This document shows positions 1,468 through 6,478 of a DNA stretch of 6,506 nt, in pieces. Source of the DNA: a virus (taxonomy: Duplodnaviria > Heunggongvirae > Uroviricota > Caudoviricetes); IMG/VR virus record IMGVR_UViG_2531839233_000013; one strand, 5' to 3'. Positions within the stretch are counted from its first letter, which is position 1. Each line of letters starts with the position of its first letter. Under the pieces are notes generated by a model. That model worked only from the letters and a program-made list of their open reading frames with translations. It made no database searches and was not told the DNA's origin. Made by a program: the position numbers and the translations under genes.

Positions 1468-1886
1468 TTCTCAATCTCTCGATGGCGCAGTGCAGCAGAT
1501 GCCAGTTGTTCAAGCTAGCACGCAAATTGTAAACCAGAATGCCAGGAAAAAACAAAACCCGCCGAAGCTGGTTGTGTGCGGTTGCGTTGAAGTCTCCTAG
1601 CCAAAGAGTAGCGGTGACCACTCCCCGCCGATAATCTTAGTTGTTTAATTTCGTAAGCTAACTAGGCTAAAAGCTCTCTGTTGTCTGCCTGTTGTACAAT
1701 TAACAAAATGAACAACGAACTAGATATACCAACGCCAGAATGGTGCAACAAATCCCAAACAACACAGCAATGCAACAATAACATATGTTATTTTCCTCTC
1801 ACGGGATTCAGTCCTGAATTCTCATAAAGCTAATCTTTTTTTAAAAACATACTGTTAGATCACATGCACTTTCTTTCTTAACATCG

Positions 1887-1914
1887 TTGACTTCGCATGC
1901 GAAGCGTTTAAAAT
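1887..1914 (+). promoter_or_regulatory. Candidate sigma70 promoter for the ATPase operon: -35 TTGACT (1887-1892), 16-nt spacer, -10 TAAAAT (1909-1914)
   Basis: Hexamers are read directly from the sequence, 52 nt upstream of the ATG at 1967; AGAGAG at 1955-1960 is a plausible RBS. A perfect 14-bp palindrome CTTCGCATGCGAAG (1891-1904) overlaps the -35 and spacer. Confidence 0.4.
1891..1904. promoter_or_regulatory. Perfect 14-bp palindrome CTTCGCATGCGAAG, candidate operator in the ATPase-operon promoter
   Basis: The sequence equals its own reverse complement and lies between the -35 and -10 elements. Confidence 0.35.
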
Positions 1915-1966
1915 CAACAATTTGCACTTAAGGTATTTATTTTCCCAAACACATAGAGAGTAAATT

Positions 1967-3358
1967 ATGACTGAGAACACGACTCCAACAGCAGACTTTA
2001 GTCCTAGTAAAAGATTTTTTGTAAGTATGCTAACTCGAGATATCGACTTAAACGATGCCATACTTGATCTGCTTGATAACTGCGTCGATGGGGCTTTACG
2101 TACAATAAAAGACACAAAAAAAACTTCAAAACCATATGAAGGATTTTATGCGAAACTTACGATTAATAAAGATGTCTTTATTATAGAAGACAATTGCGGA
2201 GGTATCCCTAAAAGCTTCCGAGAATATGCTTTTAAAATGGGACGACCCCATCAAAAAGAAGAAGAAAATGAAGGCACCGTTGGCGTCTATGGTATTGGTA
2301 TGAAAAGAGCCATTTTTAAAATGGGTAGAGATTGCTCAATACAATCGAATAATCCCGATGGCGCATTCACTGTAGATATAACACCTGATTGGATCGATGG
2401 TGATGGTTGGAAAATACCGATGCACGAGAGTGACTATGATAACAAAAATCCAACAGGCACAACTATAGAGATAAAAAAACTCCATTCTAATGTGGCACAA
2501 AAATTTAATGAGAGCACATATCTTACTGATCTCTTTTTACAGATAAAACACTCATTGTCATTTATTATTCAAAAAGGATTTAAAATAGAATTAAATGGAG
2601 TTGTTGTTGAACATAATCCGATTAACATCATAACTGATCATTCTAAAATAGAACCATACATATATAAAGCTAAAATAGACGATGTTGATATCGATTTAGT
2701 TGTTGGCTTCTATAAAAATTTAGAAGATGACAATGATGATGTTTTAGAAAAAAGGAGTTCTGATGATGCTGGATGGACTGTCATTTGCAATGACCGCGTT
2801 GTTCTATATTGTGATAAGACACATCTCACAGGTTGGGGCTTTGCTAATGTACCAAGGTTTCATACCCAATTTATAGCAATTTCTGGGGTTGTTCGCTTTA
2901 CCAGTAAAAACCCAGAAAAATTACCAATAACAACAACGAAACGAGGTGTCGATCTTAGTTCTACATTGTACAATGATGTACGAAATAAAATGATTGAAGG
3001 GATGATGCATTTTATTCGATTCACCAATCAGTGGAAAGGTGAGCATCTTGAAGAAGGGAAAAAATTACTTAAGTCAGCTCAGTCACATGAAGCTCAATCT
3101 TTATTTGAAATTACCCCACAATCAACTCCAGAAGATAAAAAAAATAACTGGTCCAACCCTAATAGAAACAAAAATGAGTGGCGATATACACCTAAGCTGC
3201 CTACCCCAGTAAAAAAAAGCTCTACTGTACGAATAATCTTCACCAGAGAGAAAGAAGATGTTAAAATTTTATCTAAATATTTCTTTGGACATGAAGATGC
3301 TAGCGCTTCTGATGTGGGGATGCAATGCTTTGATACGGTGATTGAAGAGGTGAAGTGA
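1967..3358 (+). CDS. GHKL-superfamily ATPase (MutL/MORC/Hsp90-like Bergerat fold), 463 aa
   Basis: All four Bergerat-fold motifs are present in order: N-box D34-L-L-D-N38-C-V-D41-G-A (compare MutL ELVENSLDAGA and MORC ELxDN), G1 box I-E-D75-N-C-G-G79-I (compare MutL DNGCGI), G2 box G106-V-Y-G109-I-G111, and G164-T-T-I-E-I (compare MutL GTTV). The roughly 260 C-terminal residues are unassigned. Stop is TGA at 3356-3358. Confidence 0.8.
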   Translation: MTENTTPTADFSPSKRFFVSMLTRDIDLNDAILDLLDNCVDGALRTIKDTKKTSKPYEGFYAKLTINKDVFIIEDNCGGIPKSFREYAFKMGRPHQKEEENEGTVGVYGIGMKRAIFKMGRDCSIQSNNPDGAFTVDITPDWIDGDGWKIPMHESDYDNKNPTGTTIEIKKLHSNVAQKFNESTYLTDLFLQIKHSLSFIIQKGFKIELNGVVVEHNPINIITDHSKIEPYIYKAKIDDVDIDLVVGFYKNLEDDNDDVLEKRSSDDAGWTVICNDRVVLYCDKTHLTGWGFANVPRFHTQFIAISGVVRFTSKNPEKLPITTTKRGVDLSSTLYNDVRNKMIEGMMHFIRFTNQWKGEHLEEGKKLLKSAQSHEAQSLFEITPQSTPEDKKNNWSNPNRNKNEWRYTPKLPTPVKKSSTVRIIFTREKEDVKILSKYFFGHEDASASDVGMQCFDTVIEEVK

Positions 3359-4347
3359 TGTCTGGACAATACATTCCCTATCACTTAAGGCATAATAAGT
3401 CTATTGATAGAGAGATTTTTCTCGAAAGCCTAAACCTCTTAAGCAAAAGACTAAATATTCAAGAATATACATATATAGGTTTTGGTGGTCCGATGCTTGA
3501 AGATTTTAGAATCATGCATAATCGTATCGCTCTTTCTGATATGATTTCTCTCGAAGAACAAGAGTCTACTCACATCAGACAAAAATATAATTTGCCTTAT
3601 AATTGTATTGATTGTAAGCTAATATCAGCTCATGACTTTATTCTTGATTATAGTTTTTCTAAACCATCAATAACATGGTTAGACTATGCCTCCCCGAAAA
3701 AAATACAAACGGATCTAGATGATATACACTTACTAAGTACTAAAGTAAGCTCTTTTGATATTTTGAAGGTCACCTTCCCCATAAATCCTAGTTCTTATTA
3801 CCAACGTAGAGTTGGAGAAAGTTTAGATATTTTTAAAGAAGCTTTTATTAATTCATTAAAATCATTGCTTGGGAAAAAGTATCTTGATTTTAATCTTCAG
3901 ATATCAAATGCAGATCTTTCAGATCGTAAGATTAAAGCTCTTTTAATACGAATTATTACAAACGCTTTTAGATCAGCAATAGAACGTGGTCTTTCAGGAC
4001 GTAAGGATAAGATTCAGTATTACCCATTATCCTTAAATCAATATAATGATGGCAGTCATACCATGTTGACAATATCAGGTTTTTTCTCCTCAGAACAAGA
4101 ATATATAGAGTTATCTAAGGCATGCGACCTTTCTAACTGGCAATTTTATTCAACAAATTGGGAAGACGTGCAAGAAATAGCAATACCAACACTAACAATT
4201 AAAGAAAAGATAAATTTAGATAGTAAACTGCCTGATAAAGAAGCATATCAGGCAGCCGCTGAAGAGTTCTCTTTAAACGAAAATGAACGGGATAACTATT
4301 ATAAATACTATAGGTTATACCCTAACTTCCAAAGAATTATGGTTTAA
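3358..4347 (+). CDS. Hypothetical protein, 329 aa, translationally coupled partner of the GHKL ATPase
   Basis: A long ORF with the same AT-rich composition as the ATPase gene. The ATG at 3358 overlaps the ATPase stop (TGATG), with a GAGG core at 3347-3350 about 7 nt upstream; the track's GTG at 3355 is an alternative start. No transmembrane stretch and no motif I can assign. Stop is TAA at 4345-4347. Confidence 0.7.
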   Translation: MSGQYIPYHLRHNKSIDREIFLESLNLLSKRLNIQEYTYIGFGGPMLEDFRIMHNRIALSDMISLEEQESTHIRQKYNLPYNCIDCKLISAHDFILDYSFSKPSITWLDYASPKKIQTDLDDIHLLSTKVSSFDILKVTFPINPSSYYQRRVGESLDIFKEAFINSLKSLLGKKYLDFNLQISNADLSDRKIKALLIRIITNAFRSAIERGLSGRKDKIQYYPLSLNQYNDGSHTMLTISGFFSSEQEYIELSKACDLSNWQFYSTNWEDVQEIAIPTLTIKEKINLDSKLPDKEAYQAAAEEFSLNENERDNYYKYYRLYPNFQRIMV

Positions 4348-5466
4348 ATATTCGGGCTGTACTCTTTTATTTAATAAATTGTACAGCCCCTTTAATATAT
4401 ATTCAGCAACTATTGGTGACACGCTATTTCCTATTTGTCTGAAACTATGCCATTTAGTTACATGAAAGCGAAACCAATCAGGGAAGCCTTGTAATCTAGC
4501 AGCTTCTCTTGGTGTAATCACTCTTGGATGATAAGGGTGGATCGGCCTGACGGCTTGAAAGCTTCCTTTATCTCTAGCGGTTCCCGCCCTTAAAGTCGGG
4601 CAAAAACCATTTGGATCTAATCTTGTAGATCTTGAAATTTTATCAGTTTCCCCAAAAGATAAGGAAGCATAACGCTCTTGGACGATTTTGCTATGTAATG
4701 TTCCGGTACATCCAGATATGATATTATTTTTTAACTTAGCGATCGATTCTGTATCACCAACATTCCGAGGGATCTGCCCCCATAATTTTTCATAAAATCC
4801 CCCTTTTCGATCTTTTTTAATTGTTCGCCAACTCTCAGAGTCTGATTGCCAATTGGCATCGATAATATCTGGTAATCCATACAAAGCATCTTTTACAGTA
4901 ACCGGATCAATCATTTTAGGCATAAATACTTCATCTGAAATATCAAGCTTCAATGATTTTTTTACACCGATAAAAAAATATCTAGTTCGAATAGTTGGAG
5001 CACCATAATCAGATGCTTTTACCTTGATGGGATCAAGAATATCATAATCACCGCTAACCAAATTAAATGCTTTATTTCTAATGCCAGAATATTTCTCTTG
5101 CATAATACCTGGAACATTTTCTGCCAAAAAGAATAATGGCTGTAATTCTGATACTAAACGGTAGAAATGCATGTAAAGCTGATTCCTGCTATCATCAGGA
5201 TTCCCCTTGCCTATTGAACTAAATCCTTGGCACGGAGGACCGCCAATAATACCATCTATGGGCATATCGTTTTTAAAAAAACCCTTAATTATTTCTGCAT
5301 TTAGTAAAGAAACATCTTCTTGGACGTGCAAACTTCTTGGAAAATTAATTGCGTGAGTATTAATAGCATGTTGATCAATTTCAACTGCCATTTTAACATC
5401 AAATCCAGCACGTGCAGCACCAAGACTTAGACCTCCAACGCCAGAAAACAAATCTATTACATTCAT
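4315..5466 (-). CDS. DNA (cytosine-5)-methyltransferase, Dcm-type, 383 aa
   Basis: Canonical C5-MTase motifs: motif I D-L-F7-S-G-V-G-G12 (AdoMet binding), motif IV G-G-P-P78-C79-Q-G-F-S (catalytic Cys), motif VI F-F-L-A-E116-N-V, motif VIII P-T-I-R-T-R-Y-F-F-I-G, motif X R-Q-I-G-N-S-V-S-P. The variable target-recognition region lies between VIII and IX. Confidence 0.92.
   Translation of the reverse strand: MNVIDLFSGVGGLSLGAARAGFDVKMAVEIDQHAINTHAINFPRSLHVQEDVSLLNAEIIKGFFKNDMPIDGIIGGPPCQGFSSIGKGNPDDSRNQLYMHFYRLVSELQPLFFLAENVPGIMQEKYSGIRNKAFNLVSGDYDILDPIKVKASDYGAPTIRTRYFFIGVKKSLKLDISDEVFMPKMIDPVTVKDALYGLPDIIDANWQSDSESWRTIKKDRKGGFYEKLWGQIPRNVGDTESIAKLKNNIISGCTGTLHSKIVQERYASLSFGETDKISRSTRLDPNGFCPTLRAGTARDKGSFQAVRPIHPYHPRVITPREAARLQGFPDWFRFHVTKWHSFRQIGNSVSPIVAEYILKGLYNLLNKRVQPEYLNHNSLEVRV
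4354..4400 (+). terminator. Candidate intrinsic terminator for the ATPase-partner operon
   Basis: A perfect 9-bp inverted repeat GGGCTGTAC (4354-4362) / GTACAGCCC (4381-4389) with an 18-nt AT-rich loop, followed by CTTTAATATAT. It starts 7 nt after the partner stop and lies inside the 3' coding end of the convergent methyltransferase gene. The loop is longer than in a textbook terminator. Confidence 0.35.
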
Positions 5467-5498
5467 ATAGTTGCAACGTCTCTTATTAGTTTCTATGT

Positions 5499-5528
5499 AT
5501 TATAACACAACTGTTCTTGATGTTTTAA
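5499..5528 (-). promoter_or_regulatory. Candidate promoter for the methyltransferase with extended -10 (TGTTATAAT on the minus strand)
   Basis: Plus-strand ATTATAACA at 5499-5507 reads TGTTATAAT on the minus strand, about 33 nt upstream of the ATG at 5466. The -35 is weak (best TTAAAA-like), which is usual for extended -10 promoters. Confidence 0.4.
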
Positions 5529-5728
5529 CCCCATAAGATAACCTCATAAAGGCTATCCCTTGAAAATACCGGATCGCATAAATTTAATCTTTCAAAACTA
5601 CTTGTCTATTAATCGAGCAATTTAAGGTTGTTTTAGTCATGTCGATACCGACATAGTTAACTAAACCCATTTCATCGTCCAACAAATGGGGGTAATACAC
5701 TTTGATTTATAGTCGGGTGGGTTTTTCT

Positions 5729-5764
5729 CTATCTGCCTTTGGTGTTCATGCCCAAGGCAGATAG
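5729..5764. repeat. Near-perfect 13-bp inverted repeat CTATCTGCCTT(T)GG ... CC(C)AAGGCAGATAG with a ~9-nt spacer, at the right island/backbone transition
   Basis: Read directly from the sequence. No U-tract follows on either strand, so it is not a typical intrinsic terminator. Confidence 0.5.
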
Positions 5765-5897
5765 CCTCAAGCACCCGCAGCAATTCTACTTAACTATCCT
5801 TTTCCCGCAAACCGTTTTTATCCCCAGCGGCAAATCGAATACACAACCAGCACCACCGCCATTACTGTTCCTACATTTGCGAATGCTTCAGGCCAGG

Positions 5898-6293
5898 TCA
5901 TTGATTCACCTTCTGCTCAATATTTTTAAGGTCATTTTCCGCATACAGTATTGCAGTTCTTGCTGCCCGCAACCGTGCTTTGGTGTTCTTTTCTTCACGC
6001 TCGAGGCTGGCAACAGATTCTCGGAGCTGATCGTGTCTGTTATGAAGCTGTCTAATCTCTCTCACCACAGCCTCACCATCGTTCGCACACCGCAGAACAT
6101 ACTGAAAAGGGTCCACAACACATCCGCACTGCAAGCACAGGATAACGTGATCCTGTTCATGAACCTCAATGGCCCGATGCTTACAGCTCTGTTGTGTGTA
6201 GTTTTTTCTGCCAGTTACTGTAATGTTCAGCAGCTTCTCTTCATCGCGCTTTGGCTGCACCAGTGTGATGATATTATCGCCTTCATTTTCCAT
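5898..6293 (-). CDS. Phage hypothetical protein, 131 aa, with a Cys/His cluster and a charged C-terminal helix
   Basis: The ATG at 6291-6293 has a strong RBS (AGGAGGT about 7 nt upstream) and overlaps the upstream stop as ATGA; the track's longer 156-aa start at 6368 lacks this support. The sequence contains CKHRAIEVHEQDHVILCLQCGC and an R/E/K-rich tail. Backbone-like G+C. Confidence 0.55.
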   Translation of the reverse strand: MENEGDNIITLVQPKRDEEKLLNITVTGRKNYTQQSCKHRAIEVHEQDHVILCLQCGCVVDPFQYVLRCANDGEAVVREIRQLHNRHDQLRESVASLEREEKNTKARLRAARTAILYAENDLKNIEQKVNQ

Positions 6294-6478
6294 CAGTTCA
6301 CCTCCTGCGGCGGTTCTGGTAGCGGCATCCAGTGTGACGGTTTCCACGACGCACCAGGAATTATCCACCCATCATTAGCGTCAGGATGCCCCGGGATGTA
6401 AGTCGCCCACTTCATTCGCCAGTCACCTTTCCTGTCAAACTCCACGGCAACAAGAACGGCTGTTTTGGTATCCGGCAT
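6293..6478 (-). CDS. Phage hypothetical protein, at least 61 aa, possibly 5'-incomplete
   Basis: The ORF is translationally coupled to the downstream gene (ATGA at 6293). The reading frame stays open upstream of the ATG at 6478 to the window edge at 6506, so the true start may lie outside the window. Confidence 0.45.
   Translation of the reverse strand: MPDTKTAVLVAVEFDRKGDWRMKWATYIPGHPDANDGWIIPGASWKPSHWMPLPEPPQEVN

Follow-up and report, generated by a model that had tools for sequence, protein, structure and literature searches.

A predicted methyltransferase-fold partner of a MORC-type ATPase in a mobile cassette with a C5 cytosine methylase

Introduction

Iyer, Abhiman and Aravind (2008, PMC2292703) predicted that prokaryotic MORC ATPases work alongside cytosine methylases and Vsr in restriction-modification systems, and that the eukaryotic MORC silencers descend from these ATPases. 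Here we describe a three-gene cassette that can be compared with these predictions. It lies in a 6,506-nucleotide stretch of tailed-phage DNA (Caudoviricetes; IMG/VR record IMGVR_UViG_2531839233_000013), the whole of which we refer to as the window, and it consists of genes for a MORC-type ATPase, for a 329-amino-acid partner protein that we call MT35, and for a C5 cytosine methylase. Cassettes of this kind have much in common with the MORC and paraMORC neighbourhoods of the 2008 study, namely a GHKL plus S5 ATPase with the MORC signature, a cytosine methylase, Vsr and sometimes a second GHKL paralogue. However, about 70% of the MORC neighbourhoods in that study host superfamily 2 (SF2) helicases and others host recognisable nucleases, whereas the cassette has neither. 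A constant partner with a methyltransferase fold is a feature of the cassette that the available text of the study does not mention.

Two further types of cassette follow a parallel logic. These are the combinations of C5 methylase, GHKL(HEF_HK), Response_reg_2 and Vsr genes (Bellieny-Rabelo 2021, PMC8011034) and the 'Kinase-methylase' cassette (Rousset 2022). Like ours, they combine a C5 methylase with a HATPase_c_3 ATPase and a small, closely linked partner, and Vsr is frequent among them, but their partner is receiver-like and they often include HNH or GIY-YIG nucleases, and the ATPases described here do not match HEF_HK. A nuclease-bearing relative of the same design can be found in supplement file 7 of PMC9122126. 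In addition, a GHKL ATPase is part of an experimentally shown anti-phage system, GHKL-Shedu (paraMORC3, VcSduA; PMC12137116). That said, GHKL-Shedu unites its ATPase with a PD-(D/E)xK nuclease (DUF4263) in one polypeptide, and neither a methylase nor a methyltransferase-fold partner is described for it. Our search of the literature on MORC plus defence found no experimental study of a prokaryotic MORC.

The combination of an ATPase with a methyltransferase fold is itself familiar. In Type I and Type III restriction-modification systems, and in the bacteriophage exclusion (BREX) system with its PglX protein, a methyltransferase-fold subunit that binds S-adenosylmethionine (SAM) is part of an ATPase complex that discriminates methylated from unmethylated DNA. 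We know of no nuclease in BREX. In these systems the methyltransferase-fold subunit is the protective methylase and the ATPase is a helicase or an AAA+ protein, whereas the cassette has a separate C5 methylase and an ATPase of the GHKL/MORC type.

We propose that MT35 is an obligate, translationally coupled partner of a prokaryotic MORC-type ATPase, and that this pair, with a C5 methylase and elsewhere also Vsr, forms a mobile cassette resembling a restriction-modification system, in which the pair is the non-methylase arm. We give this reading about an even chance of being correct. It fits the 2008 MORC prediction and has a parallel in the methylase-GHKL-receiver-like cassettes of 2021, while the role proposed for MT35 is drawn from the differences: no helicase, no nuclease and a partner with a methyltransferase fold. 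The MT35 family is already catalogued, yet uncharacterised; MT35 has a predicted methyltransferase fold and pairs obligately with a MORC ATPase, and the PADLOC models miss the pair.

Results

MT35 and the ATPase form a constant pair

The genes of the cassette and their junctions are located in the window as follows.

1967..3358, plus strand: gene for the MORC-type GHKL ATPase, 463 amino acids
3344..3352, plus strand: Shine-Dalgarno-like sequence GAAGAGGTG for the open reading frame (ORF) that follows, within the last part of the ATPase gene
3356..3360, plus strand: TGATG stop/start junction, with the ATPase TGA at 3356-3358, the MT35 ATG at 3358-3360 and a 1-nucleotide overlap
3358..4347, plus strand: MT35 gene (PF20553), 329 amino acids
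4315..4347: convergent overlap of the 3′ ends of the MT35 and C5 methylase genes, 33 nucleotides, from the ORF coordinates
4315..5466, minus strand: gene for the C5 cytosine DNA methyltransferase, 383 amino acids

A preliminary description of the window had placed a 329-amino-acid ORF at 3358-4347, overlapping the ATPase stop codon by one nucleotide, and had taken the overlap to imply co-translation. The plus-strand ORF does end at 4347, RefSeq has the same coordinates, and the overlap is present and is consistent with translational coupling. The ORF listing puts the start at GTG 3355, but RefSeq and the N-termini of the family (MSGGxIPYHLR) agree with ATG 3358; a Shine-Dalgarno-like GAGG is found at 3347-3350, 7 nucleotides 5′ of this ATG. 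With 329 codons in DNA of about 32% guanine plus cytosine (GC) and a full-length profile match, the MT35 ORF is not a product of chance.

The sample of loci that we compared consists of 61 from species-representative genomes and others that were fetched by identity. The ATPase gene is directly 5′ of MT35 in 64 of 64 loci, so the frequent occurrence of MT35 without its ATPase in housekeeping contexts, which the preliminary description had singled out as a sign against its reading of a novel effector, was not seen. The stop and start codons overlap by 8, 4 or 1 nucleotides in 52 of these loci and are separated by at most 5 nucleotides in nine more. When the search is reversed and starts from the ATPase, MT35 is the next gene in all three of the sampled homologues. 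Pairwise identity values for MT35 and the ATPase co-vary (rho 0.55), and MT35 evolves fastest of the three cassette proteins (mean identities: MT35 35%, ATPase 46%, methylase 47%). No fourth gene is conserved: the surroundings of about 45 loci contain 147 Pfam families, each in three cases at most. A set of 131 flanking proteins likewise has no family in more than three copies and no conserved nuclease, and HNH_2 is found in just two of 140 neighbouring proteins.

Family and predicted fold of MT35

The preliminary description recognised no motif or family in MT35, expected the nuclease activity of the cassette to reside in it, and suggested profile searches and structure prediction with a fold search as checks. 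Both were carried out, and they point to a methyltransferase instead. Residues 1-328 match positions 1-308/309 of Pfam PF20553 (Methyltransf_35, 'Putative O-methyltransferase') with an E-value of 2e-89 and a score of 300.4 bits, where the gathering cut-off is 27 bits, and the protein matches PHROG 19983 (E=2e-154), a PHROG of no known function. The RefSeq product name is 'O-methyltransferase'. PF20553 comprises 2,126 clusters at 50% identity (E of at most 1e-3), distributed patchily over many bacterial phyla and one archaeon, and the top 150 relatives of MT35 are all standalone proteins, mostly of 300-380 amino acids. MT35 is a full-length member of the family, yet the annotation conveys nothing of the strict pairing with a MORC ATPase. 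Literature searches with the family name and protein accessions found no characterised member of PF20553, nothing was found that ties MT35 to O-methylation, and NCBIfam and PADLOC gave no match to the protein.

The AlphaFold2 model of MT35, which used 36 homologues, is confident, with a predicted local distance difference test (pLDDT) score of 89 and a predicted template modelling (pTM) score of 0.87. The model shows the strand order of the class I methyltransferases, with an alternating strand-helix Rossmann core and a terminal beta6-beta7 hairpin, and its structural matches are solely class I SAM-methyltransferases. Judged by this model, MT35 has the fold of that class. Base N-methyltransferases are the closest folds and enzymes acting on rRNA and tRNA lead the list of structural neighbours, while some of the Foldseek matches are natural-product methyltransferases. 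Against nucleic-acid N-methyltransferases of the Trm1/RsmD type, the template modelling scores (TM-scores) are 0.45 or less, and there is no detectable sequence similarity: hhalign comparisons with Escherichia coli RsmD and RlmJ returned noise only, and neither the single sequence nor the family profile found a relative of solved structure. Relative to the solved cores of this type, MT35 has apparent additions, namely a helical region at 142-219, a helical domain at the C-terminus and, at the N-terminus, the invariant peptide YHLRxNK, which is poorly defined in the model (residues 1-9 have a pLDDT below 50).

The conserved residues of MT35 can be placed on this fold. Across 47 full cassettes, with identities down to about 25%, the positions G41-F42-G43, E66, W107-x-D109 and Y8-H-L-R-x-N-K...R18 are at least 93% conserved. 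G41-F-G43 forms the glycine-rich motif I loop after strand 1, strand 2 ends in E66, and strand 4 in D109-Y110. In class I methyltransferases the acidic residue that ends strand 2 contacts the ribose of SAM. The pattern of landmarks fits a working SAM site in MT35. Motif IV reads W-L-D109-Y110-A-S-P and lacks the PP of the (D/N/S)-P-P-(Y/F/W) pattern that defines the amino (N6A/N4C/m2G) nucleic-acid methyltransferases; its Asp is invariant and the aromatic residue nearly so.

The possibility that MT35 is a nuclease was also considered and was ruled out, as no nuclease family of Pfam, NCBIfam, PADLOC or PHROG matches it and all of its structural matches are methyltransferases. The earlier reading that the protein has neither Walker motifs nor a nuclease signature is in line with this.

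The MORC-type ATPase

In the 463-amino-acid partner of MT35, a GHKL domain and an S5 transducer domain are followed by a strand-helix-helix tail at the C-terminus. Neither the GHKL motifs nor the lysine K325 of the S5 domain varies among the ATPase homologues. The MORC-specific GhXhhpXXRhl motif is likewise invariant; here it reads G269-WTVICND-R277-VV and fits the definition of Iyer et al. By these motifs, the protein belongs to the true MORC-type ATPases. The tail, of about 45 residues, is predicted as a strand with two helices after it and might be a dimeric DNA-binding element; Pfam returned nothing for this C-terminus, and the idea of a ribbon-helix-helix comes solely from the predicted strand-helix-helix order. 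No nuclease was found within the ATPase. Assignments of the ATPases to paraMORC3/Shedu and to HEF_HK were dropped for want of a match to DUF4263 or to HEF_HK.

A second GHKL paralogue, of 546-610 amino acids, is found beside the C5 methylase in nine loci (L017, at 9061-10824, L018, L019, L020, L025, L026, L028, L032 and L033). It carries MORC-like S5 motifs and a poorly conserved C-terminal extension of about 170 amino acids, and has no nuclease match. This paralogue may heterodimerise with the 460-amino-acid ATPase.

Linkage to the C5 methylase and Vsr

The C5 methylase of the window matches Pfam DNA_methylase (E=3e-61), is classed by PADLOC as a type II methyltransferase and has intact catalytic motifs. 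It is essentially identical to PDB 3G7U (3g7u_A, E=1e-254), so that one of the cassette proteins already has an experimental structure; the sequence that the methylase recognises was not found. Of about 58 usable loci in the sample, 47 have a C5 methylase adjoining the pair, and three different gene orders are seen among them. Approximately 20 loci, about a third, contain Vsr, sometimes within the same operon or overlapping the ATPase or methylase gene. The window cassette is without Vsr, as are most cassettes.

Convergent overlaps like the one between the MT35 and methylase genes of the window recur, at 15-50 nucleotides, in many distant loci (e.g. L010, L022, L027, L029, L041-L047, L073, L074 and L077). 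This recurrence suggests that the arms of the cassette affect each other through transcriptional interference or antisense control. A further arrangement was observed in Rhodoferax (L015:11400-13709), where two ATPase-MT35 pairs flank a single C5 methylase and the second pair is far more divergent.

Mobile-element context

The composition profile of the window sets the cassette apart from its flanks.

1620..5750: low-GC island with the three-gene cassette, about 31-38% GC versus 47-52% in the flanks

From its RefSeq context in E. coli O157:H7, the site of the island is the nin region of a Rac-like, CP-933R-type lambdoid prophage. Among 5,426 complete E. coli genomes, 173 carry the island at an identity of 99% or more, and most of these are Shiga toxin-producing E. 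coli. Cassettes occupy this lambdoid nin slot in both E. coli and Yersinia. In sister lambdoid prophages with the same DUF1367 and DUF551-side flanks, the 4-kb island is replaced by a hokD (Hok/Gef) type I toxin-antitoxin cassette, therefore the nin-region site behaves as an exchangeable slot for accessory genes.

The cassette is also hosted by other elements, e.g. in the gpQ-gpA slot of P2-like prophages from Cronobacter, Enterobacter and 49 further E. coli genomes. Experiments by Rousset et al. (2022) established the slot as a hotspot of phage defence, and the cassette appears in the P2 hotspot tables of that study. Another copy is found in the accessory region of the Pseudomonas filamentous (Pf) phage PfAC20, where a published PADLOC run called it 'incomplete RM'. 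Further sites include integrase islands, Tn7-like elements and conjugative elements, and positions beside STAND, HsdR or ScoMcrA genes; many cassettes are small chromosomal islands rather than parts of phages. In our own run of PADLOC v2.0.0 the methylase alone was matched, and neither the ATPase nor MT35 matches any defence model.

Other features of the window

Candidate regulatory sites were found at both ends of the cassette.

1887..1914, plus strand: candidate promoter TTGACT-16-TAAAAT, about 50 nucleotides 5′ of the ATPase start, with 10 of 12 consensus matches
1891..1904: perfect 14-bp palindrome CTTCGCATGCGAAG, read from the sequence, within the spacer of the promoter-like site at 1887..1914
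5499..5528, minus strand: candidate promoter TTAAAA-18-TATAAT with an extended TG, just 5′ of the methylase start, from a consensus scan

The number of sites that the promoter and terminator scans returned in the region is not above chance. We estimate the chance of a 14-bp palindrome in a stretch of such length at about 1%. The palindrome may serve as an operator, to which the ATPase would perhaps bind through its strand-helix-helix tail. It is not conserved, with similar palindromes absent from the upstream regions of seven homologous operons. Rfam found no RNA elements in the window.

Beyond the island, a minus-strand ORF of 156 amino acids at 5898-6368 matches PHROG 1621 (function unknown) over residues 26-155, and RefSeq for strain PA20 has only an 81-amino-acid product with the same stop. 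On the opposite strand, a 220-amino-acid ORF at 5739-6401 has no family evidence and resembles a shadow ORF. At the other end of the window, 27-701 on the minus strand is a DUF1133 Q-antiterminator-like ORF, of 224 amino acids from an upstream ATG that overlaps the YbcO gene, while the RefSeq start at 581 gives 184 amino acids. The shorter form is favoured, as the first 40 residues of the long form lie outside the Pfam match, which starts at residue 41.

Discussion

If the MORC-MT35 pair is the non-methylase arm of a restriction-modification-like cassette, then the division of labour between the three proteins might be as follows. The C5 methylase would place a 5-methylcytosine (5mC) mark on resident DNA, and the MORC ATPase dimer would serve as an ATP-gated DNA clamp. 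MT35 would bind SAM and, either as a reader or as a catalytic subunit, would interrogate the DNA and act where the 5mC mark is missing. This action could be a covalent modification of the unmarked DNA, or it could license the clamp to trap that DNA; in both cases unmodified incoming DNA would be inactivated and the cassette would have a defensive function.

A number of observations weigh against this proposal. There is no nuclease domain in MT35, in the ATPase or in the conserved neighbours, therefore the cassette is not a canonical restriction-modification system: it has the linked cognate DNA methylase of such systems, and no recognisable endonuclease. In 7-8 loci, mainly from Nostocales (L011, L013, L014 and L016) and Parabeggiatoa (L031 and L036), an intact pair is found with no methylase within 8 kb, an arrangement not to be expected of a pair that is toxic when its methylase is missing. 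Several of the Nostocales pairs are inserted between ndh genes (NADH-dehydrogenase/antiporter-family membrane subunits, Proton_antipo_M), and a search beside the cyanobacterial pairs for a methylase of another type found none. The identities of the C5 methylase track those of the pair weakly (rho of about 0.1), MT35 and the ATPase are mildly acidic (isoelectric point, pI, of about 6, versus about 9.2 for the methylase), and motif IV of MT35 has D-Y in place of the canonical (D/N)PP(Y/F). Furthermore, we found no indication in Rousset et al. that the cassette was assayed, and no phenotype was found in the literature.

A further conjecture, which we consider unlikely, is that MORC-MT35 is a restriction module that works without a nuclease. 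In it, an ATP-gated MORC clamp and a SAM-dependent enzyme of methyltransferase fold would inactivate DNA that does not carry the 5mC mark, not by cleavage but by covalently modifying or damaging its bases, or by trapping it topologically and silencing it.

The methyltransferase fold of MT35 also invites explanations that do not involve restriction. MT35 may be a second, ATPase-assisted nucleic-acid methyltransferase (e.g. one producing N4-methylcytosine, N6-methyladenine or N2-methylguanine) that lays a protective or regulatory mark on its own element, in which case the cassette would be a double-modification, anti-restriction or epigenetic module. The intact SAM-site landmarks, the base N-methyltransferases among the nearest folds, the pairs that lack a C5 methylase and the absence of a nuclease anywhere in the cassette all suit this idea, as does carriage by phages, which are in the habit of carrying orphan protective methylases. 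However, it leaves a dedicated MORC ATPase in 64 of 64 loci unexplained, many of the cassettes are small chromosomal islands, and MT35 is acidic, unlike the adjoining DNA methylase; we consider it unlikely. The resemblance to rRNA and tRNA methyltransferases can also be read in terms of abortive infection, where the MORC ATPase would sense foreign or unmethylated DNA and MT35 would be a toxic effector that methylates rRNA, tRNA or protein and halts growth. A neutral to acidic pI and a location in defence hotspots are compatible with such an effector, and the invariant N-terminal peptide, with its low model confidence, would suit a regulated switch. Yet a toxic effector gives no reason for the tight linkage to the C5 methylase and Vsr, and neither toxin-like regulation nor an antitoxin is evident, which makes abortive infection a distinctly improbable account.

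A third alternative is that the pair assists the C5 methylase in mutation avoidance. Here the MORC ATPase would resemble MutL and stimulate Vsr in the very-short-patch repair of deaminated 5mC, with MT35 aiding the recognition of strand or site. Iyer et al. (PMC2292703) draw the parallel between MutL-Vsr and MORC-Vsr, and about a third of the loci contain Vsr, in some cases with a gene that overlaps that of the ATPase. That said, most cassettes, including that of the window, are without Vsr, some pairs are without a methylase, and the role given to the methyltransferase fold is ad hoc, so we regard mutation avoidance as very improbable. We find it scarcely credible that MT35 is, as annotated, an ordinary O-methyltransferase of small molecules or proteins without a connection to DNA or defence. 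The names in Pfam and RefSeq point that way, and natural-product methyltransferases are among the Foldseek matches, but no characterised member was found behind the name, the neighbours show no biosynthetic or metabolic theme, with the ATPase, the C5 methylase and Vsr the only conserved ones, and the gene is strictly confined to mobile cassettes.

Returning to the proposal of a restriction-modification-like cassette, its three genes span just 4 kb or so and are native to E. coli O157 prophages, which makes it a compact entry to the function of bacterial MORC proteins. The cassette poses the question of how methylation-linked immunity could operate without a recognisable nuclease, and the answer would be either a new mechanism of restriction or a new ATP-dependent modification of nucleic acids. 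If the pair does prove to be a nuclease-free restriction module, this would be a new restriction chemistry, and a living prokaryotic counterpart of the link between MORC proteins and DNA methylation in eukaryotes.

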